NCBI GenBank assembly: GCA_041742335.1
Contig: JBGSIT010000045.1
Location: forward strand, 4,992 to 68,991
Length of the DNA stretch: 64,000 nucleotides
Origin: Rhizobiaceae bacterium
Lineage (GTDB): Bacteria > Pseudomonadota > Alphaproteobacteria > Rhizobiales > Rhizobiaceae
Reading direction: 5' to 3'
The notes beneath the pieces were generated by a model. The model searched no databases. It was not told the DNA's origin and saw only the letters and a list, made by a program, of their open reading frames with translations. The position numbers were made by a program, and so were the translations under genes. This document shows positions 8,187-53,025 of the stretch, one piece after another (the stretch's first letter is position 1; each line of letters opens with the position of its first letter).

Positions 8187-8191
8187 TCCTG

Positions 8192-27370: not shown

Positions 27371-27438
27371 CGGAACGGATCAATTTTCCGTTCCGCAACC
27401 GGGGTTGGTCGCCCGAACCTTCTCCTCCACCGGGCGAC
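27371..27438 (+). other. two intercistronic stem-loops between the binding-protein and permease genes
   Basis: First stem: CGGAACGGA/TCCGTTCCG (27371-27379 and 27387-27395). Second stem: GTCGCCCG/CGGGCGAC (27408-27415 and 27431-27438). No U-tract follows, so they are probably mRNA-stabilising or processing structures. Confidence 0.4.
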
Positions 27439-27483
27439 ACATCCTCTGGCAGGGTCTAACCCCATTATCCAAAGGCATTTTTC

Positions 27484-29402: not shown

Positions 29403-29605
29403 ATACGCCCTCGAACCCACCCCCAAAGGCGCGCAGGTCCTTTCTCCTGCGGCGCGGGCCTATGGAAAATATCGCCACGACGCTGATCGGCCTCGGCTTC
29501 CTGATGCTGTTCCAGCCCTTCGTTCTGGCGCTTTACACCTGGTCCTTCCTCACCTTGCTGGCGGGCACCGTAATGTTCATCATTGTTTCGAAATTTCCGG
29601 AGTGA
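29399..29605 (+). CDS. small two-TM membrane protein embedded in the ABC operon
   Basis: 68 aa (47 aa if translation starts at ATG 29462). The C-terminal part, TLIGLGFLMLFQPFVLALYTWSFLTLLAGTVMFIIV, is hydrophobic. The ATG overlaps the permease stop (ATGA), and its own stop is followed directly by the ATPase ATG. Confidence 0.55.
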   Translation: MNTPSNPPPKARRSFLLRRGPMENIATTLIGLGFLMLFQPFVLALYTWSFLTLLAGTVMFIIVSKFPE

Positions 29606-33405: not shown

Positions 33406-33429
33406 CCCGAACTGTCAAGGGATAAAGCA

Positions 33430-34050
33430 TTGCCGCCAGACACGCTGCCGCTGCTCGATCTCATTGAAGAGTGCCGTAACGCAATAGGCGGCAATGTCGA
33501 TCTGCTTTGCGCACTGGACCGGGAAATTGGCGATGGCGACCATGGCACCAACATGCAGCGCGGCATGCAGGCGCTGGTTCAAAACCAACATGAACTTGCG
33601 GCAATGCCGACTTGGCAGGCCATTGAGGAGATCGGGATGATTCTGGTTTCCAGCATTGGCGGCGCGGCCGGTCCGCTCTATGGAACCTTGATGATTGAAT
33701 TGGGCCGCGGCATGAAAGACGGCGGCGGCGGGCAAACATTCCGGCAAAGCTATGCGCATGCGGTGGACGCAGTGGGAAGACGCGGCCGTGCTTGCGTCGG
33801 AGACAAGACGTTGCTCGATGTTCTGGCACCTGTCAGGGATGATTTGCAGAGGGATCCGGGTTTGCCGGCCATAGCTGCAAGCGCCCGTGAGGCCGCAGAA
33901 AAGACGAGGGATTTGCTGGCCCGGCGCGGGCGCGCCTCCTGGCTTGGGGACCGCTCCATCGGCCATGTTGATCCCGGTGCGCAAAGCTGCGCATTGTTGG
34001 TAGAAGCGATTTGCATTTGTCTTGAAAGGGGCAACCATGATGACCGGTGA
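33430..34050 (+). CDS. dhaL: dihydroxyacetone kinase ADP-binding subunit DhaL
   Basis: About 206 aa with DREIGDGDHGTNM and the GGAAGPLYG motif. The start appears to be TTG 33430, since there is no in-frame ATG near the N-terminus. Confidence 0.82.
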   Translation: MPPDTLPLLDLIEECRNAIGGNVDLLCALDREIGDGDHGTNMQRGMQALVQNQHELAAMPTWQAIEEIGMILVSSIGGAAGPLYGTLMIELGRGMKDGGGGQTFRQSYAHAVDAVGRRGRACVGDKTLLDVLAPVRDDLQRDPGLPAIAASAREAAEKTRDLLARRGRASWLGDRSIGHVDPGAQSCALLVEAICICLERGNHDDR

Positions 34051-34441
34051 AGGGCGAAATGTAGGGATCGTGATCGTATCGCATTCACCGCTTGTTGCCG
34101 AAGGCACGGCCGACATGGTGGTGCAGATGGTGGGCGAGCAGGTCTCCGTCTCATGGTGCGGCGGCAATCCCGATGGCGGGCTCGGCACCAATGCGAGAAG
34201 CATCCACGACGCCATATTGAAGGCTTGGTCACCGGCAGGCGTGGCGGTATTTGTCGATCTGGGCGGGGCTGAAACCAATAGCGAAATGGCCATTGAAATG
34301 CTGGGACCGGAACGCGCAGCCCTCGTGATGATCTGCAATGCGCCGATTGTCGAGGGCGCCGTGATTGCGGCAGCGGAGGCGTCCGGCGGCGCATCGCTTC
34401 AAAAGATTGTCGCCACCGCCGAGGAGCTTTCACCGCGATGA
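34037..34441 (+). CDS. dhaM: DhaM phosphotransfer subunit, EIIA(Man)-like domain only
   Basis: VGIVIVSHSPLVAEGTADMV.. closely parallels the N-terminal domain of E. coli DhaM (LVIVSHSSRLGEGV). ATG 34037 overlaps the dhaL end by 14 nt. Confidence 0.82.
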   Translation: MMTGEGRNVGIVIVSHSPLVAEGTADMVVQMVGEQVSVSWCGGNPDGGLGTNARSIHDAILKAWSPAGVAVFVDLGGAETNSEMAIEMLGPERAALVMICNAPIVEGAVIAAAEASGGASLQKIVATAEELSPR

Positions 34442-34466
34442 TGCGCAAGAGACGGCGGAGGCAGGA

Positions 34467-34769
34467 TTGAGAGCGTCCCGGCAGACCGAGATTGAGGTGA
34501 CCCACGGGGTCGGGCTGCACGCCCGGCCGTCGGTGACCTTTACGCGGCTTGCCAAATCCTTTCCCTGCAGCATCGAGATCGAGGTGGATGGCAGCCAGGT
34601 CTGGATCAATGGCAAAAGCATCGTCAAGGTCATGGGCGCACGCATCCGCAAGGGCTCCATTCTGCGCATCCGGGCGGAAGGCATTCTGGCAAATGAGGCG
34701 GTGGCCGCGCTGGAAGACCTCGTCCGGCGGAATTTCGATGAGGAAAAGGGCCATGCAGTCAGGCCGTGA
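34467..34769 (+). CDS. HPr-family phosphocarrier protein
   Basis: The translation ..TEIEVTHGVGLHARPSVTFTRLAKSF.. contains the HPr active-site GLHARP block. There is no in-frame ATG. TTG 34467 is preceded by GGAGGCAGGA. Confidence 0.7.
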   Translation: MRASRQTEIEVTHGVGLHARPSVTFTRLAKSFPCSIEIEVDGSQVWINGKSIVKVMGARIRKGSILRIRAEGILANEAVAALEDLVRRNFDEEKGHAVRP

Positions 34770-36366
34770 CATCACCGGGCGCTGTGCTTCGCCGGGCTTT
34801 TATGTCGGTGAGGTTTTTCTGGCGACGCCGCTTGCGGACCGCTATGGCGATAGTGACGGGCCGGGCGTCGAACAAGCACGGCTTGACCGATCCGTTGCAA
34901 CCGCAATAGCGGAATTGACTGCATTGACGGGCGACAAGGATTCACAAAGCACCGCAATTTTAGAGTTCCAGATCGAGATGCTGATGGATCCGGAAATTCT
35001 TGAAGAGGCGAACAAATGCGTCAAACAGGGTCAAGGCGCGGAGCTTGCCTGGGCGACGGCGATGGATCGCTATGTCACCAGTTTCCAGACGTCGGATGAT
35101 GAGGCGGTGCGGGCGCGGGCCGCCGACATGACCGATATCCGCAACCGGGTGCTGGCGGCTTTGGCGGGGCGGACCTTTGTCGATTTTCCGGCAGGCTCCA
35201 TCTATGCCGCGCAGGATATGGAGCCCAGCCTGTTTTTGATGCATGACTGGTCGCGCGGCGGCGCTGTCGTGCTTTCCGCAGGCAGCACCTCCAGCCATGT
35301 GGCCATGCTGGCGCGCGCGCGGTCCATCCCCATGCTGGTGGCTACAGGACCGCAGGGGCTTGCAGATGGCGCAAGGCTGTTGGTCGATGCGAATTCCGGG
35401 CGGGCTTCGTTGTATGGCGGCGATGCGATTGCACCGGGCAATGCATCGGGTGACCCGGATGCCGCGGTTGCTGTTGTGCAGGGAAATGACGATGGCCACG
35501 TTCTGCTGGGTGACGGGCGCTCACTTTCGATCAGCGTCAACATCAATGACATGGGTGAAACCAGCCTTGTCGATCCCGGCTCCATCGCTGGCGTCGGGCT
35601 GGTCAGAAGCGAGTTTCTGCTGCGCTCTGCAGCCGACCTTGCCGATGAAGAGCGCCACTATGCGCTCTATCGCGCAGTGCTTGACTGGGCGGGCGGAAAG
35701 CCTGTGACCATTCGGCTGCTCGATCTTGGCGGCGACAAGCCGGTGGCAGGTATGGGGCCGACAGGGGGCGGCGGCCATTCAATGCTGGGCTTGCGCGGTA
35801 TTCGGTTCCTGCTCGCCAGGCCGGAGATCATGCGCATTCAGGCCCGCGCCCTCTTGCGGGCAGGTGCAGGCGGTCGCGTCAGGGTGCTGGTTCCGTTGGT
35901 GACGGTCAGTTCGGAGATGGAAGCGACGAGAAGGATTTTTGAAGACGAGGCCAAGGCGCTGGCGCATCGTGAGATCGACGTGAACGTGCCGCCCATCGGC
36001 ATGATGGTTGAAGTTCCGGCCGCCGCGCTGATGCTGGAGACTTTCGGCGTCGCGGATTTCTTTTCGCTCGGCACGAATGACCTTGCCCAATATATTGCCG
36101 CAGCGGGCCGGGACAATGACAGCGTCCAGCCTTTGATTGATTCGACAATGCCGGCCCTGCTGCGCATGATCGCCATGGTCGCTGAAAGCGCGCGGCGCAT
36201 GGGCAAGGACTTGTCGATCTGCGGTGATCTGGCTGGCGATCCGGATCGGCTTGCCGATTTGACCGGGGTCGGCCTGCTGCAGTTTTCTGTGGCGCCATCA
36301 AGGATCAAGCCGCTAAAGTCGGCTGTCGGCATGCTGGTTGCCGGCCAAAACAGAAAAGACGGGTGA
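34753..36366 (+). CDS. phosphoenolpyruvate--protein phosphotransferase (full-length Enzyme I homologue)
   Basis: The N-terminus ITGRCASPGF parallels E. coli EI (ISGILASPGI). The active-site His region (GSTSSHVAMLARARSIPMLV) and C-terminal PEP-utilising domain motifs (LGTNDLAQY, SICGDLAGD) are present. The ATG overlaps the HPr gene by 17 nt. Confidence 0.85.
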   Translation: MQSGRDITGRCASPGFYVGEVFLATPLADRYGDSDGPGVEQARLDRSVATAIAELTALTGDKDSQSTAILEFQIEMLMDPEILEEANKCVKQGQGAELAWATAMDRYVTSFQTSDDEAVRARAADMTDIRNRVLAALAGRTFVDFPAGSIYAAQDMEPSLFLMHDWSRGGAVVLSAGSTSSHVAMLARARSIPMLVATGPQGLADGARLLVDANSGRASLYGGDAIAPGNASGDPDAAVAVVQGNDDGHVLLGDGRSLSISVNINDMGETSLVDPGSIAGVGLVRSEFLLRSAADLADEERHYALYRAVLDWAGGKPVTIRLLDLGGDKPVAGMGPTGGGGHSMLGLRGIRFLLARPEIMRIQARALLRAGAGGRVRVLVPLVTVSSEMEATRRIFEDEAKALAHREIDVNVPPIGMMVEVPAAALMLETFGVADFFSLGTNDLAQYIAAAGRDNDSVQPLIDSTMPALLRMIAMVAESARRMGKDLSICGDLAGDPDRLADLTGVGLLQFSVAPSRIKPLKSAVGMLVAGQNRKDG

Positions 36367-36782
36367 GCAGTTTGGCACGCGAACCGATGGAAACCGCCAT
36401 AGTGGCCTACAAGACGATCCTGGCCGCCATCATCGACAATCGTCCGTCGGGCACTCGGCAAAGGCTGGCCGATGCCTTGGGGAAACATCGCAGTTTCGTC
36501 ACGCAAGTCACAAGTCCGGCCTATTCGACGCCGCTGCCGTCGCGCCATGTGGCCACCGTCTTCAAGGTTTGCCATTTCAGCCCGTCCGAACAGGAACGGT
36601 TCTTGAAGGCATATCAGGCGGCGCATCCGGACAAACTGCCCGACCTGCCAAACGGCGACGGCCTGCGGTCCTTGTCGCTGATGCTGCCTGATCTCAAGGA
36701 CGACAAGAAGAACCACCTGCTGGATGAGGCGGTCACTGAGTTCGTCCAGAAGCTTGCCGGCATTCTCGGCCAAAAGGAGTGA
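36363..36782 (+). CDS. small putative HTH DNA-binding protein (uncharacterised)
   Basis: About 131-139 aa. The segment RQRLADALGKHRSFVTQVTS looks like a helix-turn-helix. GTG 36363 overlaps the EI stop; ATG 36387 is an alternative start. I recognise no family. Confidence 0.5.
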   Translation: MSSLAREPMETAIVAYKTILAAIIDNRPSGTRQRLADALGKHRSFVTQVTSPAYSTPLPSRHVATVFKVCHFSPSEQERFLKAYQAAHPDKLPDLPNGDGLRSLSLMLPDLKDDKKNHLLDEAVTEFVQKLAGILGQKE

Positions 36783-36918
36783 AGGATGTCATGAACATTG
36801 GCTGTCCGGTTGCCTCGGTCCCATTGACAGGATCTGCGTTTTCGCAGTTTCAGCATGCGCGACTTGACGCATCTTGCAAGCATGCGCATTTTTGCTCTGC
36901 ACTGCTCCTGGAGGCGGA

Positions 36919-37920
36919 ATGAAAAAATTCATCAACAGGCCTGAACGCATGGCTGCCGAAAGCCTTGAAGGCTTCGTCGCGGTCCATGACGGGCTTGTCT
37001 GTTTCGGGGAGGGTCAGAAATTCGTTTGCCGAAAGACGCTTGTGCCGGGCAAGGTCGGATTGATATCCGGCGGGGGAGCGGGACACGAACCGCTTCACAC
37101 CGGGTTTATCGGTCGCGGAATGCTGGACGCCGCCTGCACCGGGCATATTTTCACCTCGCCGACGCCTGACCAGATCGTAGCCGCCATCCGCCATGTCGAT
37201 ACCGGCGCGGGTTGCCTGCTGATCGTCAAGAATTATGACGGCGATGTCATGAATTTTGAAATGGCGGCAGAAATGGTCGCCGGACAGCATCGGGTTGAAA
37301 CAGTCATTGTCGGTGACGATGTTGCCGGGCGATCCCTGCGCAGTTCCGGCCGCCGGGGTGTCGCGGGCACATTGGTAATCGAAAGACTGCTGGGTGCGAT
37401 GGCCGAAAGCGGCGCGGACCTCGAAAAGCTGAAAGCCTTTGCCGACCGTATCGCCCCGAGGATAAGATCAATGGGCGTTGCGCTGAACGGCGCCATCCTG
37501 CCGGCAACCGAAATTGCAACTTTCATTCTCGGACCTGACGAAATGGAAGTCGGGGTCGGCATTCACGGCGAACCGGGGCGGGCGCGGGCGACCTTTGCCG
37601 ATGCTGAAAGCATCATCGGCATGCTTGCGGATGCCATTATGGCCGATTTGCCGCAAGCCGGCCATGACAACACGCTGCTCTTCGTCAACGGTTTCGGCGC
37701 CACGCCGCCGGCCGAACTCTATCTTGCCTATCACATTGCGCGCGCCCGGCTTGAGCAAAGCGGCGTGGTCATCGGCCGCTCGCTGACCGGGACCTATGTG
37801 ACGTCGCTGGATACAGCCGGGCTCAGCCTGACGGTTGCGCTGATGGATGACGAAATGACGGCTCTGTGGGATCAGGAATTGGAGACGCCGGCCCTGCGAT
37901 GGAGCGCGGCGCATGGTTGA
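36919..37920 (+). CDS. dhaK: dihydroxyacetone kinase substrate-binding subunit DhaK (stand-alone)
   Basis: 333 aa with GGGAGHEP, LIVKNYDGDVMNF and GVGIHGEPG. GGAGG RBS lies before ATG 36919. Confidence 0.88.
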   Translation: MKKFINRPERMAAESLEGFVAVHDGLVCFGEGQKFVCRKTLVPGKVGLISGGGAGHEPLHTGFIGRGMLDAACTGHIFTSPTPDQIVAAIRHVDTGAGCLLIVKNYDGDVMNFEMAAEMVAGQHRVETVIVGDDVAGRSLRSSGRRGVAGTLVIERLLGAMAESGADLEKLKAFADRIAPRIRSMGVALNGAILPATEIATFILGPDEMEVGVGIHGEPGRARATFADAESIIGMLADAIMADLPQAGHDNTLLFVNGFGATPPAELYLAYHIARARLEQSGVVIGRSLTGTYVTSLDTAGLSLTVALMDDEMTALWDQELETPALRWSAAHG

Positions 37921-38494: not shown

Positions 38495-40141
38495 TCAGGC
38501 CAGCCCGAGCCAGCCGATCTGCTTGGCCTCAGCTTCGTTTTTCGCGTCTTCATAGCCTGCATCGGCGTAACGCATGACCCCGATTGACGTGTCATTTGTC
38601 AGCGACATTGAAAGCCGCATCCGGGCGGCTTCGGTGCCGTCGGCAATCAAGGTCACGCCCGCGCTGGTCATATAACCGGTATAGCCGCCGCCGCCGGAAT
38701 GGACGACCACCAGATCGGCCATGGATGAGCATAGCGCCATGGCGTCCAGCAATGGCCAGTCGGCAATGGCGTCCGATCCATCTTTCATGTTCTCGGTCAT
38801 GATATTAGGATGGGCCATGGAGCCGGCGTCAAGGTGATCGCGCGAAAAGGCAACCGGACTTTTCAGCCTGCCTGCGGCAACCAGATCATTGACCGCGACA
38901 GCAAGGTCGGTTCGCGCGCCATGGCCAAGCCAGGCAATACGGGCCGGAAGGCCCTCAAAAGGCACATTCTGCCGCGCCAGCCTGATCCAGTTGGTAACGA
39001 TCCGGTCATCGGGAAACATTTCAAGCACCAGATCGTCGATGATCCGGATATCGTCGGCATCGCCTGACAAGGCCATCCAGCGGAACGGTCCGATGGCGCG
39101 GCAGAAAAGCGGCCGCAAATAGGCCTCGGTGAAAATCGGAATGTCAAAGGCGTTTGTCACGCCGCCGTCGCGGGCATGGGTGCGGATGAGGTTGCCATTG
39201 TCAAACACCTCCGCACCTTTGGCCTGAAAATCCAGCATGGCGCGGACATGATCGACAATCGAAGCGCGGCTTTCTGCCATCAGCCTGGCAGGATCGCTTT
39301 TGCGCATGGCGCGCACCTGATCGAGACTGTAGCCCTTGGGAACATAGCCATAGACAAGATCGTGGGCCGCCGTCTGGTCGGTGACAATATCGGGCACGAT
39401 GCCGCGCCGGGCGATCTCGGGGTAGATCTCGGCGGCATTGCCGACCAGCGCAATGGAAACGGCTTCGCCTGCCTGGCAGGCAACGGCGATTTGCGTCAGC
39501 GCGCTGTCGAGGTCAGGCGCGATGCGGTCGACATAGCCGATGGCCTTGCGTTTTTGCGCCCGCTCGGGGTCGATATCGACACACAAGATGGCCGCCCCCG
39601 CCATGCGGCCTGCCAGCGGTTGAGCGCCTCCCATGCCGCCGAGGCCCGCAGTCAGGATGAACTTGCCTTTCAGCGATCCGTCAAACCGGTTTTCAGCGAT
39701 GCGCATGAAGATTTCATAGGTGCCCTGTATGACGCCCTGGCTGCCGATATATTGCCAGGCGCCGGCCGTCAGCCCGCCCCAGCAGATCAGGCCCTTGTCC
39801 TGCAGGTCATAAAAGGTCTCGGCCTTGGCCCATTGGCCGACAATGTTGCAATTGGCCATGATCACCAGCGGCGCCTGGGCGTGGGTCCTGATCAGGCCGA
39901 CAGGCTTGCCGGACTGGATGAGCAGGGTCTGGTCTTCCTCCATGGTCGTCAAGGTGCTGACGATCTTGTCATGGGCGGCCCAGTTGCGTGCGGCCTTGCC
40001 GAGCGCCGCATAGACGATCAGATTGTCAGGGTCCTCACCGACCGACAATACATTTTCCATGAGCCTGAGCAGCGATTCCTGACGCCAGCCCTTGGCGCGC
40101 AAGGCAGAACCGCCGGGTACCGGAAAACGCGGATTGGCCAT
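38495..40141 (-). CDS. urocanate hydratase family protein, proposed thiourocanate hydratase
   Basis: 548 aa. Urocanase blocks are present (GWRQE, YAALGKAARNW, LIQSGKPVG, GLTAGAWQYIGSQG, NAD site LTAGLGGMGGAQP). Its context is the ergothioneine-type operon. ATG 40141 is preferred to the ORF-track start at 40279. Confidence 0.8.
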   Translation of the reverse strand: MANPRFPVPGGSALRAKGWRQESLLRLMENVLSVGEDPDNLIVYAALGKAARNWAAHDKIVSTLTTMEEDQTLLIQSGKPVGLIRTHAQAPLVIMANCNIVGQWAKAETFYDLQDKGLICWGGLTAGAWQYIGSQGVIQGTYEIFMRIAENRFDGSLKGKFILTAGLGGMGGAQPLAGRMAGAAILCVDIDPERAQKRKAIGYVDRIAPDLDSALTQIAVACQAGEAVSIALVGNAAEIYPEIARRGIVPDIVTDQTAAHDLVYGYVPKGYSLDQVRAMRKSDPARLMAESRASIVDHVRAMLDFQAKGAEVFDNGNLIRTHARDGGVTNAFDIPIFTEAYLRPLFCRAIGPFRWMALSGDADDIRIIDDLVLEMFPDDRIVTNWIRLARQNVPFEGLPARIAWLGHGARTDLAVAVNDLVAAGRLKSPVAFSRDHLDAGSMAHPNIMTENMKDGSDAIADWPLLDAMALCSSMADLVVVHSGGGGYTGYMTSAGVTLIADGTEAARMRLSMSLTNDTSIGVMRYADAGYEDAKNEAEAKQIGWLGLA

Positions 40142-40163
40142 GACAATCTCTCCTGGTTTAATG

Positions 40164-41258
40164 TTATCGGCCATCCAGCGCATAGCGGGCGATTTCGATG
40201 CCCATCGCCTTTTCGACCGATGGATAGACCGAAGCGTCCAGCACGCTGGAAGCCAGCGGTATGATCGACTTGGGCACATGGAGCACGTGGATCAGCATGG
40301 CTTCCTCCAACTGGCCGACCGAAAGCGGCTCGCCATCGGAATTCATTGAGGTGATGACATCGGGAAAAGTGGCAATGCGCTGGCCGTCGGCGGTGTCGAT
40401 GGCCATATATTCATTCATAACATGCAGCAGGCAGGCATTCTTTCCCTCGCCGATCGTGACCGTTCCTATGTCGAAGGCTTCTTTGGTATAGACCACCTGC
40501 TTGCGGGTGATGCGGCCTTCAACAAGGATCGTGCCGCCGGTTGTAGCGCAGATCGTGTCGATCACTGCGGCCCCGCCCTTCGGTTCAGCATCGAGAATGG
40601 CCTGACCCAGCTCCAGCGCAAGAGAAATGCCGCCAAGCGCTGCATGGGACTTCACATAGGACGCCGTCACCGGTGCACGCGCCGAGGCAATGAAGCCGCC
40701 GGACATGTCAGAAGCGGTCCGCAGGATCGGCGACACTTTCGCGGTTGCACCGCGCACCACCAGTTCGATATAGCGGTTTTCGGACCGATTGCCGCCAACC
40801 GCCGTCTGGATGGTTTGCTCGGGCGAACCGGCAAGCCCTATCGAGCCCATGTCGCCGGTCGGATGGGCGCGAATGTCACCGACGGCATCGACAACCTTGG
40901 CGCCCAGCGCCACCGCCGGCAGCCAGCCGTTCAGGGTCGAGGACCGGCCATTCTGGCCGACCATGAACCCGGCGATCTTCTTGCCGAGCGCTTCCTCAAG
41001 CAGTTGCGCGGCCTTGACATAATCCACCCCCTGCATTTCCCAGGCGGTGGTTCCGGCCGGCGCGCCGATGGCTGCTGCCGTAGCGATGATGGATTGGGGG
41101 TCCATTTCGTCAATCGAGACCAGTTCCGGCTTGCCCATGCGGACTGCGGCCCTGCCCAGCATGCGGCCATGTTCAACCCAGCCGCCGCCGCCGGCGGCAT
41201 AGATCGAGCCGCCGCGCACCGCAGCCTCGACGTCATCAATGGTCAGAATGCGTCCCAT
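40164..41258 (-). CDS. DUF917 family protein, proposed thiohydantoin-propionate desulfhydrase
   Basis: The N-terminus ..VRGGSIYAAGGGGW..AAAIGAP.. is typical of DUF917 (hydantoinase-associated family). The ATG shares 1 nt with the upstream stop (TGATG). Confidence 0.7.
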   Translation of the reverse strand: MGRILTIDDVEAAVRGGSIYAAGGGGWVEHGRMLGRAAVRMGKPELVSIDEMDPQSIIATAAAIGAPAGTTAWEMQGVDYVKAAQLLEEALGKKIAGFMVGQNGRSSTLNGWLPAVALGAKVVDAVGDIRAHPTGDMGSIGLAGSPEQTIQTAVGGNRSENRYIELVVRGATAKVSPILRTASDMSGGFIASARAPVTASYVKSHAALGGISLALELGQAILDAEPKGGAAVIDTICATTGGTILVEGRITRKQVVYTKEAFDIGTVTIGEGKNACLLHVMNEYMAIDTADGQRIATFPDVITSMNSDGEPLSVGQLEEAMLIHVLHVPKSIIPLASSVLDASVYPSVEKAMGIEIARYALDGR

Positions 41259-42538
41259 CAATTATTCTCCCCGGTTTCCTTGACCGGCTGATCGGCCCGG
41301 TCGATTTTCAATACCGTCTGCAGCAAGACTTCGGTGCCGGCCGCGACAGTAGAACTGTCCGCCCATTCCTCCGGCGTGTGGCTGCGCCCTCCACGGCAGG
41401 GAATGAAGATCATCGCCGCCGGCGCGACCCGCGCAAACCACGCCATGTCGTGGCCGGCGCCGGACGCCATCCGGCAAAAGGCGACGTCAAGTCCCTTGGC
41501 CGCCAGTTCGATATCGTTCAGCAACAGCGGATCCGAGGGAACCGGCGGGTTGTCGGAAATCACCTTGAAGGAAGCAACCTTGCTGCCTTTTTCCGCAGCC
41601 GCCTTTCCCGCCGATTCTTCAAGCTGCCCGATGAACCCAAGCATGTCCTGCCGAAATTCGGAGCGCGCATCAACCAGCAGGCGGGCGGTTGACGGAACCA
41701 CATTGGCGGCATTGGGTTCGATCCGGAATTCGCCCACCGTGGCGGCGAAATGTCCCTTGCAGCTTGCCGCAAGTTTCTGCGCGATGGTTTCAACAAGCAG
41801 AATGATGCCGCTGGCCGCGACAAGCGCATCGGCGCGGTTGAACATCGGCGTGGTCCCGGCATGGTCGGCGCGGCCTTCGATCAGGATTTCGATCCGGGTG
41901 ATGCCGGAAATCGCCGTGACGATGCCGATATCCAGATTGCCGTCTTCAAGCACCGGGCCTTGTTCGATGTGCAATTCCAGAAAGGCCCTTATATCGCTTC
42001 TGGTTGCAGCGGCAAGATTGTCGGGATCGCCGCCGACGGCTGCAATGCCGTCGCGAAGCGTCATCCCTTCAGCTTGTCGCTCAAGCCAGTCGGCAGGCAG
42101 CAAACCGGCTGCGATGCGGCTGCCGATGCAGGACACGCCGAAGATGCTGACCTCTTCGGCCAGGCAATCAATGACCTCGAAATCATGATCAAGAATAGTC
42201 CCCGTTTCGTGAAGGATGCGGGCGATTTCCAGCCCCGTCACCACGCCGGCGATTCCGTCGAAACGTCCGCCGTCCGGCACGGTATCGGAATGTGATCCCA
42301 CCATGATTGCGCCAAGTCCGGATTTTCTGCCGGCAAGTCGCCCGATCAGGTTGCCGCCGGCATCAATCCTTGTCACAAGGCCTGCCCGGCGCATGGCGCT
42401 CTCGACCCAGGCGCGACCATGAAGAAAAGTTGGCGTGAAGGCGCGGCGTGTCCATGGCCGTTCGGGGTCGGTCAATGCGGCGAGAGCCTTGATGTCGGCT
42501 TCGATCCTTTCGGTCCGAGCGGCAAGATTGGATTTCAT
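41258..42538 (-). CDS. M20 family Zn-dependent amidohydrolase (N-carbamoyl-L-amino-acid / allantoate amidohydrolase type)
   Basis: The blocks GGNLIGRLAG, MVGSHSDTVPDGGRFDG and the M20 dimerisation-domain pattern are present. The ATG overlaps the upstream stop (ATGA). Confidence 0.8.
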   Translation of the reverse strand: MKSNLAARTERIEADIKALAALTDPERPWTRRAFTPTFLHGRAWVESAMRRAGLVTRIDAGGNLIGRLAGRKSGLGAIMVGSHSDTVPDGGRFDGIAGVVTGLEIARILHETGTILDHDFEVIDCLAEEVSIFGVSCIGSRIAAGLLPADWLERQAEGMTLRDGIAAVGGDPDNLAAATRSDIRAFLELHIEQGPVLEDGNLDIGIVTAISGITRIEILIEGRADHAGTTPMFNRADALVAASGIILLVETIAQKLAASCKGHFAATVGEFRIEPNAANVVPSTARLLVDARSEFRQDMLGFIGQLEESAGKAAAEKGSKVASFKVISDNPPVPSDPLLLNDIELAAKGLDVAFCRMASGAGHDMAWFARVAPAAMIFIPCRGGRSHTPEEWADSSTVAAGTEVLLQTVLKIDRADQPVKETGENN

Positions 42539-43908
42539 CGCCGAACCTCCAGGCTTGCCGGCGGCCGGACAAATTTCCCCGTTCCGGGTTCGGAGATCAC
42601 CTTGGCCCCGTCAAAGGCCAGTTCGCCACGCAGATAAGTGGCCGAAACCCGCCAGGGCAGGGTGATGCCGTTATAGGGCGACCAGTCGACAATGGTATTG
42701 CCGCTTTTCGCTGCGTCATAGACATAGGGCTCAGGCGCCATGACGGTGATGTCGGCATCGCGACCGACTGCCAATGCACCCTTGACATGATCGATGCGAA
42801 AATGCCGGGCCGGATTTTCCGCCATCAAGCGGGCGGCATGGGTGAGCGAAATATTGCGCTCCAGCGCGCCTTTGACAAAAAGCGGCACCATGGCTTCCAG
42901 ACCGGGCACGCCGGATGCATTGGCCAGCATGTCCGGATTGGTCTTGCGGTTTTCCGACCAGGCGACATGATCGGTCGACACAAGCGTGACATTGCCGTTG
43001 GCGACGTGACGCCAAAGCGCCTCGACCTCGGCGCGCGGTCTGATCGGCGGATTGATCTTGGCCTTGCCGCCAAGGCGGGCGACGTCATTTTCTTCGTCCA
43101 ATGTCAGATAATGAATGCAGCATTCCACAGTGGCCGGGTGCCCGCCGGCGCGGTAGGCCGCCGCCATCTCATAGCCGCGACCCAGCGAGCAATGCACCAC
43201 ATGGGCCGGGCATCCGGTGGCCACCCCGGTCTCATAGATTTCGGCCATGGCGATCAGTTCGGTCATCGGCGGTCGCGATAATCCGTGCGCCCGCCAGTCG
43301 CTGATGCCGGAGGCCTTGACCCGGGCCATGTGGATATCCACCGCCTCATGGTTTTCGTTATGAACGCCCGCAGCAAGACCCGTCGGTGCGATGGCTGCGA
43401 AACAATCGTGCAGCAGTGCCGGGTTGATGCGCGGAAAACGCTTTGGATCGGTGCCGAAGGTGGAAAATTTGAACGCGGCAACACCTGCTGTGACCATTTC
43501 AGCAATCCGCGCCGGGCCTTCCTCTGGATCAATCGTGCCGTAAAGCGCGAAATCCACGCGCGCCTGCTTGCCGGCATGATCGATCTTGCGTCGAACGGCC
43601 TCCGCCGAGCAGACCAGATTGCCTTCGTCATAGGGCATGTCGACAATCGTTGTCACACCGCCGCTGGCCGCAGCGCGGGTTGACCAGATGAAGTCCTCCT
43701 GATTCTTCTGGCTGAGCGAATGAACCTGTGCGTCGATGGCGCCGGGAAGGATCATGGCATCGCCAAGCAAATGGCGTTGCCGGCCCGCAGGCGGCACGCC
43801 CTGTCCGATCATTGCCACTTTGCCATCCCTGATGGCAACGAAACCGCCGGGAATGATCCGGTCGGCAAGGATGACGGCGCCTGCCAGGACGAGATCAAAA
43901 TCGGACAT
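42535..43908 (-). CDS. cyclic amidohydrolase (hydantoinase/allantoinase/dihydropyrimidinase superfamily)
   Basis: The amidohydrolase fold pattern is present (LPGAIDAQVHS, AAFKFS, VHNEN, VVHCS, STDHV). AAGGAG RBS lies upstream. Confidence 0.8.
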   Translation of the reverse strand: MSDFDLVLAGAVILADRIIPGGFVAIRDGKVAMIGQGVPPAGRQRHLLGDAMILPGAIDAQVHSLSQKNQEDFIWSTRAAASGGVTTIVDMPYDEGNLVCSAEAVRRKIDHAGKQARVDFALYGTIDPEEGPARIAEMVTAGVAAFKFSTFGTDPKRFPRINPALLHDCFAAIAPTGLAAGVHNENHEAVDIHMARVKASGISDWRAHGLSRPPMTELIAMAEIYETGVATGCPAHVVHCSLGRGYEMAAAYRAGGHPATVECCIHYLTLDEENDVARLGGKAKINPPIRPRAEVEALWRHVANGNVTLVSTDHVAWSENRKTNPDMLANASGVPGLEAMVPLFVKGALERNISLTHAARLMAENPARHFRIDHVKGALAVGRDADITVMAPEPYVYDAAKSGNTIVDWSPYNGITLPWRVSATYLRGELAFDGAKVISEPGTGKFVRPPASLEVRR

Positions 43909-43946
43909 GGAATTCTCCTTTTGCCGTGGCGGTTGCCGGACGCGCT

Positions 43947-45494
43947 TCAGATCGGATTGCTGAGCGCGAATTGCGTGTCAAATCCGACCATCGGCGCAAG
44001 GCGGACCAGCGAATCTGAAAAGCGCTCCGACCTGAAATCATTGAATATGGCGTCCATGTCGCCCGAAAGCGGCCGGTCTTCGCCGTAAAAATCAGAATGG
44101 GCCCTTACCGAGTCATGTACGAACCCGGCGACGCCTCCCGGCTTGTCTTCCATCAGGTCCATGGCTTGTGCCGCAAACAGCGCCTCAAGTGCCGCCAATT
44201 GCAACAGCGTTTCCACGGCGGAGTCGAAACGCTCGATGATCAGCGGCAGGAACGCGGCCTCGTCCTCCATGCCGTCGGCCATGACCAGCAGTTGGGCCGA
44301 TATCGGCTGGACCTTGGAAACGATGCGGCTGAAGAGATCAGCCGCCAGCTTGACGATCGGCCCATAGCCGGTGGTGACATTGTTGTTGGGCCGCAGATTG
44401 ACCGGCAGGCCGCGAATCTTGCCATTGGCCATCAGGACGCAGCGATTGAGGCAATTGCGGGCCGCATGGGCAATGCCCTGGCTTGCCGATTGCATTCCGA
44501 GACTGACGGAAAGCGGCAGCGAACCGCCGGAGGAAAGGACCCGTCCGTCCAGCACCACCGGATTGTCGTCGCTGCTGCCGGTCGCCAGTTTGACAGCGCG
44601 GCCGGCATTGGAAAATACGTCGATGACCGCACCGAAAATCTGCGGCATCATCCTGAGAGACAGCGGATCATGCAGCCGGGTTACCGGCTGGATATTGGAA
44701 ATCTGCGCCTGTTCAAACAGCCACGAGCCGACGGCTGCTTCACTGGGCGTCCCGATCCGGGCAGCCACTTCCAAAGGATCGCGGGATGCGCCCATGGCGC
44801 AGGCGCTTGCCAGGCCCACCGCCAGCAGCACCCGAAGGGTTCGGGCGGCATTGATCAAGCCGTGGGCGGCGCCCGAATAGGCAATGGCGTTGGAGCTGAT
44901 CGACGACAGGCTGTCCTTGGGCGCCAACCGCAATGTCGTAAGACCCGCCAAACGGAAGGCGGTTTCGGTTGGAACCCTCTTTCCCTGATAGAAGACCTCA
45001 CCCATGCCGGTGAGCACAGTGCCGATCTGGCCCATCAGGCCGATATCGGCGCAACCGATCGACCCGGTTCGGCGCACATAGGGCACGATGTCGGCATTGA
45101 GAAGCGCGATCAGGGCGGTGACCAGTTCGGCCGTGCATCCGGTCTGCCCGGTCAGCGCGGTATTGACCCGTATGGCGATGGCCGAGCGGATGACTTCGGA
45201 TGAAAAAGGTTCGCCTATGCCGAAGTGATGGGCCTTGACCAGTCCGTCATTGAAGGCGGCCAGGTCTTCAGCTCCGAGGATCATTTCCTTCATGGCGCCG
45301 ACACCAGTATTGGCGCCGTAGATAAAGACGCCGGAACTGATGACCCGCTCGAAATCACAGCGACTGGCGCGCACCAGCTTCATGCAGTCCTCGTCGGGTG
45401 CCACCAGCACCTCGCCGCTGCCTATCAGTTTCAACGCAGCAAAGCTTAATGGTTCAGCACTCAACGACAGGCAGGCCTTGGTTCGGATCATCAT
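43947..45494 (-). CDS. aromatic amino-acid ammonia-lyase family protein without the MIO triad, proposed ergothionase
   Basis: The HAL/PAL fold pattern is present (IYGANTGVG Tyr loop, later SSDDNP-type block). At the position of GS(V/I)GASGDL the sequence reads GSIGCADIG (codons at 45053-45045). Confidence 0.75.
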   Translation of the reverse strand: MMIRTKACLSLSAEPLSFAALKLIGSGEVLVAPDEDCMKLVRASRCDFERVISSGVFIYGANTGVGAMKEMILGAEDLAAFNDGLVKAHHFGIGEPFSSEVIRSAIAIRVNTALTGQTGCTAELVTALIALLNADIVPYVRRTGSIGCADIGLMGQIGTVLTGMGEVFYQGKRVPTETAFRLAGLTTLRLAPKDSLSSISSNAIAYSGAAHGLINAARTLRVLLAVGLASACAMGASRDPLEVAARIGTPSEAAVGSWLFEQAQISNIQPVTRLHDPLSLRMMPQIFGAVIDVFSNAGRAVKLATGSSDDNPVVLDGRVLSSGGSLPLSVSLGMQSASQGIAHAARNCLNRCVLMANGKIRGLPVNLRPNNNVTTGYGPIVKLAADLFSRIVSKVQPISAQLLVMADGMEDEAAFLPLIIERFDSAVETLLQLAALEALFAAQAMDLMEDKPGGVAGFVHDSVRAHSDFYGEDRPLSGDMDAIFNDFRSERFSDSLVRLAPMVGFDTQFALSNPI

Positions 45495-45614
45495 GCAGCC
45501 CTGTTCAAATCAGATGGCGGTATCCTATTGCAAGCACGGCGCATTAGGGATATCCCATTTCCTGAACGCTCTATGTCATGAACACAATTTTTCCATGCGC
45601 CGGAAAGGGTTGAT

Positions 45615-46850
45615 TTGGATCTGTCCGCCATAGTCACGGGCGTCGCCGTTCTGGAGGACGTATCGATCCGCGGCGCAAGCCGCAGGCTCGGCAAGCCGGT
45701 GGCAAGCGTCCATGCGGCATTAGACCGGCTGGAGAAGGGCCTTGCCACGGATCTGGTTTTCAGGACAGGCAACTCCATTACGCTCACCCTCGACGCCGAG
45801 CGGTTCCTGACGCCGCTCATGCGCATTCGCCAGCTTTGCGAATTGCTTTGGACGCCCGCGGCCGGACGGAAGCACGATGATTGCGGCCGCGCGGTTGATT
45901 GCGCTTTGTCGCTAAAAGTCCTGCAGCGCTTCAATGAAACCATCCGCGCAGGAAGCATTCGCGGCAGCGCCAGGCGGTTGGGTATCGGTCAGCCGCAATT
46001 GTCGCGTCAGTTGCAGAGAATGGAAAAGGAACTGGGAGCGGCGCTTTTTCACCGCGATGCCGGCGGCATCAGCCTGACGGACGACGGCAAGCGGGTACAG
46101 GAAGCCGCCATCTCGATCATGGCCATCTGGAATGACCTTGTCTCGCCGGCATCGAGCAATTTCAGCCGCACCAACCGTACGATCCATATCGGTTCGGTTG
46201 TGCCCTCAGGGCATGAAAGCCAGGTGGCGCGGCTGCTGGCCACCTTGTTTGCCCGCTGGGAAGGCGTGCGCCGCCGTCATCATCTTTCCTTGAAAAGCAC
46301 CTTGGCGGAAGAGTTGGTCAGCGAGTTGAAGGCAGGCCGGCTTGATCTGGCCATTCTCGATACCGAGGCCGGACCGCTGGGGCTGGACGGCTTGTCGCTT
46401 TCTCGATCCCGCCTCGCACTGATCGGTTATCCCGGTCTTGATACCAGCCGTTCGCCGGATGTGATCATGAGGGAGGAAAAAGTCGCTGTGCCCAGTCGCC
46501 GAAGCGGGTTGAGGCAGGCCGTCAGTGACCTGATGAAGCAGGCAAATGGCGGTGCGGAGGGAACCCCGGACAACTTCGTGGAGATTGATTCCATCCCGGT
46601 CATCGTCAACCTCGTGATCCATCACCGCTTTGTGACGGTCTTGCCCCTGACATCGGTCGCAGGGCTGGAGTCCGGCCTCACAGTCATTGAACTTTCCCCG
46701 CATCTTGATTTGCCGCTCTGGCTGGTCTGGCCGCGCGCCCGGGCGCTGGGCCGGGTTCTTGATGACATTCTCGATTGCCTTGCCGGATTTGAAACGGTGC
46801 CGTCACTGCCTTCGGATCCAGGACTTCGGCGAATCCAGACAAGCCTTTGA
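45615..46850 (+). CDS. LysR family transcriptional regulator with a duplicated N-terminal HTH domain
   Basis: 411 aa. Residues about 2-65 and about 100-160 each fit the LysR HTH pattern. A normal substrate-binding domain follows. The start is TTG 45615. It is divergent from the lyase operon. Confidence 0.65.
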   Translation: MDLSAIVTGVAVLEDVSIRGASRRLGKPVASVHAALDRLEKGLATDLVFRTGNSITLTLDAERFLTPLMRIRQLCELLWTPAAGRKHDDCGRAVDCALSLKVLQRFNETIRAGSIRGSARRLGIGQPQLSRQLQRMEKELGAALFHRDAGGISLTDDGKRVQEAAISIMAIWNDLVSPASSNFSRTNRTIHIGSVVPSGHESQVARLLATLFARWEGVRRRHHLSLKSTLAEELVSELKAGRLDLAILDTEAGPLGLDGLSLSRSRLALIGYPGLDTSRSPDVIMREEKVAVPSRRSGLRQAVSDLMKQANGGAEGTPDNFVEIDSIPVIVNLVIHHRFVTVLPLTSVAGLESGLTVIELSPHLDLPLWLVWPRARALGRVLDDILDCLAGFETVPSLPSDPGLRRIQTSL

Positions 46851-46962: not shown

Positions 46963-47766
46963 ATGACACGCAGGACAATCACCGAAGATTGGGGCAGGTA
47001 TCGCAAGGGCGAATTCTTTGTCAGCAACAATGTCTGGAACCGGGGCGACCTGGTCAACGGTCAGGATTACAGCCAGTCCATCCATTACAATACCAATACG
47101 CTTGATCGCGGAGTGCGGTTCAACTGGAACTGGCCGGTCTCCGATCACGTATTGGCCTATCCGGAAATCGTCGCGGGTTACAAGCCTTGGGATCGATTGG
47201 GATCTGGAAATCTCACTGCGAAAATCAAGGACATCGATGTGTTCGATGTCCGTTTCGATTTTGATATCGCCGGAAAGACCGGCAATTTCAATGTTGCATT
47301 CGATCTCTGGCTGACAACCAAGCCTAAGGCGGGCGCTGGCAGCATTACCACCGAATTGATGGTCTGGCTGCATGACGGGAAATTGACGCCGGCTGGCGAT
47401 CTGGTCGGGCACTATGACCACAAGGGATTTCACGCCAGCATCTATTTTGCCGAGAACTTTGGTGATGCCAGCGGCAATTCAAGCAAGGGCTGGAATTATA
47501 TTGCACTTGAATCCGACAGCGAAATCCGCAAGGACACAATCGATTTTGCCCATTTGCTGCACAATCTCCAAAAACGCGGACTGATCGCCGGCTCGGATTA
47601 TGTCAACGGTTATGAGTTTGGAGCGGAGGTGACCGGCAACAAGGGCTCGCTCGCCATTCACCGTCTGCACCATGAATTCGAAGCCGGCAATGCCGCGCGA
47701 ACAGTCGACAACCACGGGTCGAATATGGCGCATCAGTTTGCGCAAGCTGACGATTTCCTGTTTTGA
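46963..47766 (+). CDS. glycoside hydrolase family 12-like protein
   Basis: GH12-like blocks are present: VSNNVWN, AYPEIV.G, NVAFDLWL, TELMVWL (nucleophile Glu) and GYEFGAEVTG (acid/base Glu). There is no N-terminal signal peptide. GC is visibly lower than in the neighbours. Confidence 0.55.
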   Translation: MTRRTITEDWGRYRKGEFFVSNNVWNRGDLVNGQDYSQSIHYNTNTLDRGVRFNWNWPVSDHVLAYPEIVAGYKPWDRLGSGNLTAKIKDIDVFDVRFDFDIAGKTGNFNVAFDLWLTTKPKAGAGSITTELMVWLHDGKLTPAGDLVGHYDHKGFHASIYFAENFGDASGNSSKGWNYIALESDSEIRKDTIDFAHLLHNLQKRGLIAGSDYVNGYEFGAEVTGNKGSLAIHRLHHEFEAGNAARTVDNHGSNMAHQFAQADDFLF

Positions 47767-47844: not shown

Positions 47845-49128
47845 ATGCCGTCATCCCATGCCATTCCTGTCTGGACGCCGCCGCCGGATGGTCAGCCGCA
47901 GACCCATCCGCTCAATGACCACCATCATTGCGATCTCGCCATTGTCGGCGGCGGTATCCTCGGGCTTTCGGCTGCCCGCCAGGCCGCGCGCGCCGGCCTT
48001 TCCGTCCAGGTCATCGAGGCAGGCCGTCTCGGCAGCGGTGCGGCGGGGTTGAACGGCGGACAGGTCATTGCCGGCCTCAAGCAGGATCCGGAACAACTGA
48101 TGACGCTGTTCGGCGACAGGACCGGCGGCAAACTCGTCAACTTCGTCGCCTCGACGGCAGACTGCGTTTTTGAACTGATCAGGGATGAGGGTCTCGCAGT
48201 TGAAAGCACGAGAGCAGGCTGGATCTATGCAAGCCACACGGCAACCGCGCTTGCGGCCATAGCTGAGCGCAATCGTCAATGGCAGGCAGAGAACGCCGAT
48301 GTCTGCCTGCTGGACGCCGCCGCTATCGCCAGGCTGACCGGCGCCCAAGGCTATCTTGGCGGTTGGCTGGATCGGCGCGCGGGTACTATCAACCCGCTTG
48401 CCTATGTGCTTGAACTGGCGCGCATTGCCATGCTTTCGGGCGCGCGGATCACCGAAGGAGAGACAGTCGCCAATATTGCTGCACATGCGGGCGGGTTCAC
48501 CCTGACGACGGCTTCGGGCAAAACATTGGCTGCGAACAAGGTGCTGGTCGCAACAAATGCCTATTCTGATGGCCTGGTGAAAGGGCTGGCCCAGACCATC
48601 GTGCCGCTGCATTCCTTCCAGATTGCGACGGCGCGCCTGCCGGACTCGATAGCTGAGCGGATTTTGCCGGAAGGGCAGGCCGTATCGGATTCCCGCCGTA
48701 TCATCATCTATTATCGCAAGAGCCCTGACGGACGGCTGGTCTTTGGCGGGCGCGGCCGTATGTCTGCTCCGCGCAGCGACGACGACTGGAACCATCTTGT
48801 CCATGCCATGCTGAGATTGTTCCCGGCGCTGAAGGGCGTTGCCATTGAAAAGAGATGGTTCGGGCGGGTTTGCGTTACCCAAGATCACCTGCCGCATTTT
48901 CATGAACCTCTAAAAGGTCTTGTCACCTTTGTCGGTTGCCAAGGGCGCGGGGTCGCGCTGATGAGCGCCATGGGGCCGGTTCTGGCCGATTATCTGCGGG
49001 CGGGGGATGCGGACCTTTTGCCGTTCCCCACGACGCCGATCCACCCCATCGCCTTCCATTCCTTCCGCCAGATTGGCGTTGCGGCCACCATTGGCTGGTA
49101 TCGGCTGCGCGACGCCATGGAAAAATAA
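47845..49128 (+). CDS. FAD-dependent oxidoreductase (DAO family)
   Basis: The dinucleotide-binding motif DLAIVGGGILGLSAA is present. Size (427 aa) and pattern match gamma-glutamylputrescine oxidase / OrdL-type enzymes. Confidence 0.75.
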   Translation: MPSSHAIPVWTPPPDGQPQTHPLNDHHHCDLAIVGGGILGLSAARQAARAGLSVQVIEAGRLGSGAAGLNGGQVIAGLKQDPEQLMTLFGDRTGGKLVNFVASTADCVFELIRDEGLAVESTRAGWIYASHTATALAAIAERNRQWQAENADVCLLDAAAIARLTGAQGYLGGWLDRRAGTINPLAYVLELARIAMLSGARITEGETVANIAAHAGGFTLTTASGKTLAANKVLVATNAYSDGLVKGLAQTIVPLHSFQIATARLPDSIAERILPEGQAVSDSRRIIIYYRKSPDGRLVFGGRGRMSAPRSDDDWNHLVHAMLRLFPALKGVAIEKRWFGRVCVTQDHLPHFHEPLKGLVTFVGCQGRGVALMSAMGPVLADYLRAGDADLLPFPTTPIHPIAFHSFRQIGVAATIGWYRLRDAMEK

Positions 49129-49142: not shown

Positions 49143-49967
49143 TCACAGCATTGTGCGGACCGTCCAGAGTTCGGCAAACAACACCACGTCGAGCATGCGG
49201 CGCAAATAGGAGACGCCGGAAGTTCCCCCCGTGCCACGCTTCAGCCCGATCACCCTTTCAACCGTGGTGACATGGTTGAAGCGCCACCGGCGGAAATAAT
49301 CCTCGAAATCAACCAGCTTTTCCGCCAGTTCATAAAGCGCCCAATGGGTTTCAGGATCACGGTAGATCACAGCCCAGGCCGCAAGCAGCTTGTCAGTGTC
49401 ATGAATTTGCCCGCCATCGGCGTCCAGGCCGAGGCCGACGTCGAAGCCGTTGCGGTCAAGCAAGCGGATTGCCTCGTCATAGAGGCTGGGCAGGGCCAGG
49501 ATCGCCTGCAACTCGGCTGTGATGATCGGGTCGTGGGCATGCGGCTTGAGCAGTGCCGGATTGCGGTTGCCGACCAGAAATTCAATCGCCCGGTATTGCC
49601 ATGACTGGAAGCCGGACGACTGGCCCAAAGCGTCGCGAAAGCTGGTATATTCGCTCGGCGTCATGGTCCTGAGCACATCCCAGGCGCTGTTGAGTTGCTC
49701 GAATATCCGCGCCACACGCGCCAGCATCTTGAAGGCCGGCTGCAGATTGTCGTTTGCCAGGGCTTTCATGGCCGCCCGGATTTCGTGGATGGCCAGTTTC
49801 ATCCAGAGTTCCGACGTCTGGTGCTGAATGATGAACAGCATCTCGTCATGGGCTGGCGAAAGCGGAGTCTGTGACGTCAGCAATTGGTCCAACCCAAGGT
49901 AATCCGAATAGGACATGCGGGTCGAAAAATCGAGTTCCGCGCCTTCGGTGGACGGGTCCTTGCTCAT
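49143..49967 (-). CDS. kynA: tryptophan 2,3-dioxygenase
   Basis: The block [34 protein letters not shown] is the classic TDO signature. Confidence 0.92.
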
Positions 49968-52788: not shown

Positions 52789-53025
52789 CCGGTCAATTCT
52801 CCCCTTGGCTTGACGGCCTTGCACATTGACGAAGCGGCGGCAATTGCCACCTGCAATCGGGCTGGTCTTGAATCCGTCTGCGGCCTTGTTCAAGCTATCA
52901 GAACGCACAAAGATTTGCACAGGCGATAATAAACTTCAAGCTTAAAGTTTATTTGGAATCCAGCTTTGCCGATGTCTTGAATTGCTTATGCAGCAATGTC
53001 ATGACTGGGTAACGGGGAGACCGAA

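Follow-up and report, generated by a model that had tools for sequence, protein, structure and literature searches.

A predicted ert-type operon for ergothioneine catabolism to glutamate in a Rhizobiaceae-related bacterium

Organisation of the five-gene operon

We studied a stretch of 64,000 nucleotides from a Rhizobiaceae-related bacterium (GenBank assembly GCA_041742335.1, contig JBGSIT010000045.1, positions 4,992 to 68,991), the whole of which is called the window here. Five consecutive open reading frames (ORFs) on its minus strand, covering 38495-45494, would together encode a pathway of the ert type, by which ergothioneine is broken down to glutamate. Among fungi and actinobacteria ergothioneine is a widespread antioxidant, and bacteria that degrade it give off trimethylamine and H2S. 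The first gene, ertA-like (43947-45494, minus strand, 515 aa, PF00221), encodes a lyase of the histidine ammonia-lyase (HAL) family without the 4-methylideneimidazol-5-one (MIO) group, and is a predicted ergothionase. It is followed on the same strand by ertD (42535-43908, 457 aa, NF058538), for a cyclic amidohydrolase predicted to act on hydantoin-5-propionate; by ertE (41258-42538, 426 aa, NF058540), for an M20-family protein predicted to be an N-carbamoyl-L-glutamate amidohydrolase; by ertC (40164-41258, 364 aa, NF058529), for a putative thiohydantoin desulfurase of the DUF917 (S-Me-THD) family, which would carry out the H2S-releasing step; and by ertB (38495-40141, 548 aa, NF058530), for a putative thiourocanate hydratase of the urocanase family. 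A first-pass annotation of this DNA had listed the same five minus-strand ORFs, and all of them are present at the coordinates it gave.

All junctions and ribosome-binding sites were taken directly from the sequence. The lyase stop (43947) and the ErtD start (43908) are separated by a 38-nt spacer with AAGGAGA inside it, the ErtD stop and the ErtE start overlap by 4 nt in the sequence ATGA (42535-42538), and the ErtE stop overlaps the ErtC start by 1 nt in TGATG (41256-41260). Both of these overlaps had been listed in the first-pass annotation. Between the ErtC stop (40164) and the ErtB ATG (40141) there is a 22-nt spacer containing AGGAGA. At the far end of the operon, a convergent gene of the RibD_C family ends 8 nt from the ErtB stop (38495).

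Two gene starts allow more than one choice. ErtC has an alternative TTG start at 41261. The longest ORF of the urocanase gene reaches back to 40279, and the match of the hidden Markov model (HMM) starts only near residue 57-60 of that ORF. The ATG at 40141, with AGGAGA just before it, corresponds to position 1-2 of the HMM, and on an independent metagenome contig, which carries the identical locus, the urocanase gene call is 548 aa long. Since the onset of the HMM match and this independent call agree, the ATG at 40141 is the better start for ErtB.

The single strand, the two overlaps of 4 and 1 nt, the two spacers of 38 and 22 nt and the conserved order (see below) indicate one operon, whose genes are probably translationally coupled and whose co-transcription is predicted from the layout. 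A scan for consensus promoters and terminators did no better than on shuffled sequence and was dropped. A 155-aa ORF upstream of the lyase (45491-45958, minus strand) was rejected as a gene, as no family model matches it and it runs antisense to the neighbouring LysR gene.

Family assignment of ErtB, ErtC, ErtD and ErtE

The folds found with Pfam were the expected ones: Lyase_aromatic for the lyase, Amidohydro_1 for ErtD, Peptidase_M20 for ErtE, S-Me-THD_N and S-Me-THD_C for ErtC (PF06032 and PF20906, formerly DUF917) and the three urocanase domains for ErtB. NCBIfam release 20 covers four steps of ergothioneine utilisation with curated equivalog models, and the roles that the first-pass annotation had assigned to the urocanase homologue, the DUF917 protein, the cyclic amidohydrolase and the M20 protein were borne out, each protein passing the cut-off of its model. 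ErtB scored 1028 bits with the thiourocanate hydratase model NF058530 (cut-off 930), and ErtC 583 bits with the thiohydantoin desulfurase model NF058529 (cut-off 440). Among solved structures, ErtB was closest to 7ned (795 bits), which we take to be a thiourocanate hydratase, the deposited molecule being named only "urocanate hydratase"; canonical urocanases gave at most 607 bits.

The same enzyme families could also serve the degradation of S-methyl-ergothioneine, through an S-methyl thiourocanate hydratase and an S-methyl thiohydantoin desulfurase, and ErtB and ErtC do give secondary matches to the models of these two enzymes. However both matches stay below the cut-offs, with 750 bits against 880 for ErtB (NF058531) and 282 bits against 450 for ErtC (NF058532). 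As a control of the models, two other clusters, identified by tblastn of plasmid records, were scored with the same NCBIfam set. In the cluster of Burkholderia sp. JSH-S8 the same thio-type models were passed, with scores like those of the window proteins, while in Agrobacterium tumefaciens plasmid pAt the DUF917 protein (555 bits) and the urocanase (976 bits) passed the S-methyl models and failed the thio models. Because the two controls receive opposite verdicts, the models do separate the pathway variants. By this measure the window operon belongs to the plain thio type and not to the S-methyl type, and the S-methyl substrate appears very improbable.

ErtD is a member of the hydantoinase/allantoinase family and ErtE of the carbamoylase family, and their nearest solved structures are, respectively, D- and L-hydantoinases and the N-carbamoyl-L-amino acid hydrolase 3n5f. 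This would also be expected of a generic cluster for hydantoin, pyrimidine or allantoin salvage that had come by chance to lie beside unrelated HAL and urocanase paralogues. However ErtD passed NF058538 (789 bits, cut-off 600) and failed both the allantoinase model (265 bits, cut-off 358) and the dihydropyrimidinase (D-hydantoinase) model (210 bits, cut-off 393), while ErtE passed NF058540 (580 bits, cut-off 520) and the allantoate amidohydrolase equivalog was failed as well. Moreover, the coupling of the five genes and the persistence of the five-gene order in about 60 genomes are hardly expected of a chance neighbourhood, so that we give the salvage explanation very little credence.

The lyase

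The assignment of the lyase follows a different line of evidence. The protein matches PF00221, the HAL/PAL (phenylalanine ammonia-lyase) fold, over its full length with 277 bits, and fails the HutH equivalog TIGR01225 (213 bits, cut-off 539). Its best solved structure is that of Treponema denticola ergothionase (TdETL; 6s7j, 150 bits), barely above Pseudomonas putida HAL (143 bits). The Ala-Ser-Gly triad from which MIO is formed is absent, as the first-pass annotation had proposed: the window lyase reads GSIGCA-DIG where P. putida HAL has GSVGASGDLA and TdETL has SSIGEG-DI. Cys-Ala thus stands in place of Ala-Ser-Gly, with a one-residue deletion common to TdETL (6s7j, 6s7q), the difference being GCAD in the window lyase and GEGD in TdETL. 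Tyr59 corresponds to the catalytic Tyr54 of TdETL, Lys382 is aligned with its thiolate-binding Lys384, and Leu278 occupies the position of HAL Tyr280, where TdETL also has Leu. The imidazole-binding His89 and Glu410 and the carboxylate-binding Arg281 are kept. Tyr59 and Lys382 are invariant in 12 close homologues of the lyase.

These positions were also followed in an alignment of 145 sequences. Besides the window lyase it contained TdETL, P. putida HAL, three close homologues and, from the best 150 family representatives, the 139 with a length of at least 440 aa. The triad is missing and Lys is found at the TdETL Lys384 position in 95 of these sequences, while every sequence bearing the triad has Tyr at HAL 280, and Tyr, Val or Thr in place of the Lys. 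In a neighbour-joining tree the window lyase falls within an 18-member subclade marked by GCAD, whose sister group ("GE[AG]D") holds TdETL and the Burkholderia lyase, and both are inside an MIO-less clade of about 117 sequences before the MIO-bearing HALs join. Alignment with TdETL and a tree with HutH were among the checks suggested for the lyase by the first-pass annotation, and by its diagnostic residues and its place in the tree the protein goes with TdETL. By motif and phylogenetic position, the window lyase is a predicted ergothionase-type trimethylamine-lyase. In the lyases of Shewanella the Lys is reported to be essential for binding the thiolate of ergothioneine, and to give way to Asn or Gln in those specific for histidine betaine or Nπ-methyl histidine betaine (bioRxiv 10.64898/2026.04.22.720169, 10.1101/2025.08.13.670108). 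Taken together, the missing triad, Leu at the HAL Tyr280 position and Lys at that of TdETL Lys384 offer a motif rule for spotting such lyases.

An ordinary use of histidine or histidine betaine, in which HutH or a hercynine lyase would work with HutU and a variant downstream route, must be weighed at this point. The lyase belongs to the HAL family, its homologues are labelled "histidine ammonia-lyase" by the Joint Genome Institute (JGI), and ErtB exceeds the permissive cut-off of the hutU model (693 bits against 375). The conserved carboxylate- and imidazole-binding residues and the folds, PF00221 in the lyase and PF01175, PF17391 and PF17392 in the urocanase homologue, are likewise those of HutH and HutU. 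However ammonia elimination by HAL needs the MIO triad, which the window lyase does not have, besides failing the HutH equivalog; the Lys missing from hercynine-type lyases is present in it; and the score of ErtB with the hutU model is 335 bits below that with the thiourocanate model. A sulfur-removing enzyme would have no role in the breakdown of histidine or hercynine. Finally, hutI, hutG and hutF, whose absence had been noted in the first-pass annotation, were not found in a scan of the window ORFs that covered most of 56 ORFs chosen by GC content at third codon positions and a length filter. Canonical hut passes through imidazolone propionate, and the route predicted for the window passes instead through a thiohydantoin and a hydantoin. 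On this evidence a histidine or hercynine pathway is extremely unlikely.

Conservation in related genomes

A genome scan, for which an alignment of lyase homologues served as query, yielded 80 related loci (L002-L081), mostly from Rhizobium and Neorhizobium, with some from Devosia, Chthonobacter and Salinarimonas. Lyase identity across them is 51-57%, the best match among GTDB representative genomes being 57% identical. The lyase gene is followed by ErtD, ErtE, ErtC and ErtB, with order and strand unchanged, in 59-61 of the 80 loci, which argues that the five-gene arrangement is not a chance juxtaposition. In these conserved loci the identity to the window proteins is 68-81% for ErtD, 56-69% for ErtE, 71-79% for ErtC and 77-84% for ErtB. 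Only ErtD is missing from the cluster in two loci (L053 and L073). In 33 Rhizobium loci an ORF of about 109 aa with a TfoX_N domain lies between ErtC and ErtB (about 15390-15780 in loci of the L007 type); it is absent from the window. The position of the cluster also varies: in Rhizobium it comes directly after ubiB, whereas in the window it is found 29 kb further along and inverted.

Divergent regulator and upstream palindrome

Divergently from the operon, and separated from the lyase gene by a 120-bp intergenic region, lies a gene for a LysR-type protein (45615-46850, plus strand), a candidate regulator of the operon. The protein has a LysR_substrate domain and two HTH_1 stretches, the N-terminal helix-turn-helix (HTH) domain being duplicated (residues 17-83 against 113-179, 36% identity, E = 5e-10). 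Long-form orthologues adjoin ert genes both in Chthonobacter (48% identity; L008 8691-9887, minus strand) and in Paracoccus aminophilus plasmid pAMI4 (37% identity over 377 aa, a stretch that takes in the extra domain; L083 5043-6248, plus strand). The operon promoter is probably within the 120-bp region common to the two divergent genes.

In the middle of this region, at 45547-45556 and thus 53-62 nt upstream of the lyase ATG, there is a perfect palindrome, GGGATATCCC, which we propose as a candidate operator. An exact copy stands at the corresponding place, some 50-60 nt before the lyase start, in 53 of the 80 loci, and 13 others have a copy there with a single mismatch. Elsewhere in the 1.65 Mb of these loci only one exact match was encountered. 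The sequence flanking the conserved palindrome has diverged among related loci. The genomes with the palindrome upstream of the lyase include some having the lyase alone, and Paracoccus pAMI4 has, upstream of ErtD, a copy with one mismatch (L083 6273-6282). The palindrome was not found in the Burkholderia cluster, and most of the Rhizobium loci that have it lack an adjoining duplicated-HTH LysR gene. No Rfam family was matched in the window as a whole at gathering thresholds, or in the intergenic region at E values up to 1.

It is conceivable, though on balance doubtful, that the Rhizobiales-type GCAD lyase subclade, the duplicated-HTH LysR and GGGATATCCC form an undescribed regulatory module sensing ergothioneine or thiourocanate, and that the substrate range of this subclade differs from that of the Treponema and Burkholderia ergothionases, extending for example to oxidised forms or selenoneine.

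Predicted pathway and its evaluation

Taken together, these data lead us to read the five genes as an ert-type operon for the aerobic catabolism of ergothioneine to glutamate in a Rhizobiaceae-related bacterium, with a probability of roughly 87%. The lyase would remove trimethylamine from ergothioneine, giving thiourocanate, which the urocanase homologue would hydrate to 3-(5-oxo-2-thioxoimidazolidin-4-yl)propionate. The DUF917 enzyme would then release the sulfur as H2S, leaving hydantoin-5-propionate; ErtD would open the ring to N-carbamoyl-L-glutamate; and ErtE would produce glutamate, CO2 and ammonia. The genes would be expressed as a translationally coupled unit, from a probable promoter in the palindrome-containing region shared with LysR. 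The chemistry is drawn from the names of the NCBIfam models and from papers that cite the work on the pathway. That the enzyme set corresponds step by step to the ergothioneine route had been the central claim of the first-pass annotation, and it holds in so far as each step has either a curated model or a diagnostic motif. The substrate of the lyase, the inducer, the parts played by regulator and palindrome, the entry of ergothioneine and the fate of trimethylamine are elements of the scheme that we infer.

Several observations, it should be noted, weigh against this reading. The lyase is 25.5% identical to TdETL, 30% to the lyase of the Burkholderia cluster and 26.9% to P. putida HAL; because identity to TdETL and to HAL is nearly equal, whole-length similarity does not discriminate here. 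No close relationship to a characterised ergothionase was found in the comparison with TdETL and the Burkholderia-cluster lyase, nor was a curated ergothionase model present among the NCBIfam matches of the protein, so that its proposed role derives from motifs and gene context and not from close homology. The exact substrate of this GCAD-type lyase is the main uncertainty of the reading. The lyase and the other four genes can also be uncoupled: an intact lyase, in most cases with the palindrome upstream, is kept in about 17 Rhizobiaceae genomes that have no ertB-E within 10 kb (L002-L004, L006, L009, L014, L015, L021, L033, L035, L041, L058, L060, L063, L075, L081 and others), and in Paracoccus aminophilus pAMI4 ertD-E-C-B are present but a lyase is missing from the surrounding 9 kb, which indicates that the linkage is not strict. 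ErtE scores slightly higher on the generically named equivalog NF009531, "Zn-dependent hydrolase" (611 bits, cut-off 486), than on its own model. Lastly, among the window ORFs scanned we found no recognisable importer of ergothioneine, and none passed a curated model of trimethylamine metabolism; for the operon itself, the lack of both kinds of gene had already been remarked in the first-pass annotation.

Transport and trimethylamine

Transporters were also searched for in the window by tblastn with proteins of the OpuAC type and of the major facilitator superfamily (MFS), the latter being found beside Rhizobium clusters, and only generic matches to ATP-binding cassette (ABC) ATPases were obtained. 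The LysE, EamA and sugar ABC genes of the window were considered as ergothioneine transporters and rejected, as nothing links them to the operon. Among related genomes, between the lyase and ErtD, the loci of Chthonobacter and Devosia (L008 11563-15477; L005 11604-15445) contain a betaine ABC transporter of the OpuAC type, with binding protein, permease and ATPase, and Salinarimonas (L066) and a Devosiaceae metagenome-assembled genome (L031) have a gap of similar size at this place. This transporter is a candidate ergothioneine importer in the relatives, and its betaine type, within the cluster, fits a betaine substrate.

At the right-hand edge of the window there is an ORF with a GcvT domain (62934-63923, minus strand), the gene being possibly cut by the window end. 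It has a weak resemblance to the C-terminal part of the sarcosine oxidase alpha (soxA) family and of trimethylamine N-oxide demethylase, and its scores of 169 bits (cut-off 1164) and 132 bits (cut-off 1100), respectively, are far too low for either model.

Relationship to known systems

Ergothionase has been described in Burkholderia sp. HME13 (Muramatsu et al. 2013), and the five steps have been reconstituted in vitro (Beliaeva, Leisinger and Seebeck 2021), both works being cited in PMC12922746. For our comparisons the cluster of Burkholderia sp. JSH-S8 was used as a same-genus proxy for HME13. The window operon shares with this ert pathway the five enzyme families and the predicted chemistry, and ErtC is about 63% identical to the Burkholderia homologue. 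The arrangement is different. The window has lyase-D-E-C-B in a single operon, whereas in JSH-S8 E-D is divergent from LysR-C-B-MFS-lyase; the MFS gene has no counterpart in the window operon, which is without a transporter, the two lyases are in different subclades, and the Burkholderia LysR is of standard length while that of the window is long, with its duplicated HTH.

The cluster of A. tumefaciens Ach5 on pAt (L084, record 401214-422281) has homologous DUF917, urocanase, ErtD and ErtE genes, in the order IclR, DUF917, glutathione S-transferase (GST), ErtE, urocanase, molybdopterin S/N-oxide reductase, ErtD and betaine ABC transporter; two ABC transporters are present in this record. The GST, the reductase and the IclR regulator are all absent from the window operon, and the composition of the pAt cluster points to a derivative of ergothioneine, methylated or oxidised, as its probable substrate. 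One may then ask whether a derivative (the sulfonate, another oxidised form or selenoneine) could be the substrate in the window as well, GCAD lyases being specialised for it. The separation of their subclade from TdETL and the Burkholderia-type lyase, at 25-30% identity, would agree with such a specialisation. The reference list of PMC13405746 includes a published pathway for ergothioneine sulfonate that is connected there with Agrobacterium radiobacter, and Rhizobium rhizogenes has an orthologue in the family of the window lyase (52% identity). However ErtB and ErtC clear the cut-offs of the thio-type equivalogs by good margins, at scores like their Burkholderia counterparts, the operon includes a thiohydantoin desulfurase, and the lyase keeps the thiolate-binding Lys, while the one cluster of derivative type examined, that of pAt, has its GST, its reductase and distinct subfamilies, none of which is seen here. 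We therefore consider ergothioneine itself as the probable substrate and a derivative as unlikely.

The periplasmic trimethylammonia-lyases of Shewanella are likewise MIO-less members of the HAL family. The ergothionase SO_3057 keeps the Lys, and the betaine lyases SO_3299 and Swoo_3913 have Gln or Asn replacing it. These enzymes are exported and coupled to flavocytochrome reductases in anaerobic respiration, whereas the window lyase is linked to a hydrolytic route ending in glutamate.

Annotation status and distribution

The pathway is published and four of its steps have curated models, so that the window operon is a new example and leaves the known chemistry unchanged. The first-pass annotation had also expected automated annotation to hide the pathway. 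This is true of older records: plasmid records of 2024 label ert genes "DUF917", "urocanate hydratase", "aromatic amino acid lyase", "amidohydrolase family protein" and "Zn-dependent hydrolase", and the JGI label of the lyase homologues has been mentioned above. It no longer applies to current annotation, as the DUF917 Pfam families have been renamed and the present NCBIfam would name four of the five genes correctly, the lyase being the remaining gap.

In a BLAST-based paper of 2026 ergothionase is described as confined to few genera (PMC13405746). Our data are at odds with this statement and suggest that the enzyme is common in Rhizobiaceae and merely unlabelled, since the lyase has 366 genome matches and the clusters are conserved. 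The narrow distribution probably arises from the fact that the lyase is labelled only "aromatic amino acid lyase". The operon adds one soil-type alphaproteobacterium to the predicted consumers of ergothioneine. It also gives some modest leads, namely the lyase subclade, the duplicated-HTH regulator, the conserved palindrome as candidate operator and the candidate betaine-type importers of the relatives.

Other genes in the window

The window belongs to the chromosomal dnaA region. At 196-9772 there are a hemN-like gene, a saccharopine dehydrogenase-like gene, dnaA (2664-4451, minus strand), a gene for an enoyl-CoA hydratase (ech), fpg, ubiE and ubiB. The order dnaA, ech, fpg, ubiE, ubiB is as in Rhizobium, with proteins about 68-79% identical (median values). 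A gene for a protein of the TIGR03032/DUF4915 family (16045-17124, plus strand) adjoins pyrC. The sugar-type ABC transporter genes (25901-31500) are upstream of dihydroxyacetone kinase genes at 31771-37920, where a Dak1-Dak2 fusion and DhaK are accompanied by a phosphoenolpyruvate-utilising protein resembling enzyme I of the phosphotransferase system.

On the other side of the operon, a gene for a GH12 glycosyl hydrolase (46963-47766) stands beside the LysR gene. Further on, a kynurenine-pathway cluster on the minus strand (49143-52920) encodes a tryptophan 2,3-dioxygenase, a kynureninase and an enzyme of the benzoate-CoA-ligase family, and adjoining it is the gene of an L-pipecolate oxidase-like flavin adenine dinucleotide (FAD) oxidase (47845-49128, plus strand), whose 277 bits are under the cut-off of the model. 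A protein with RTX calcium-binding repeats is encoded at 59371-60891 on the plus strand.

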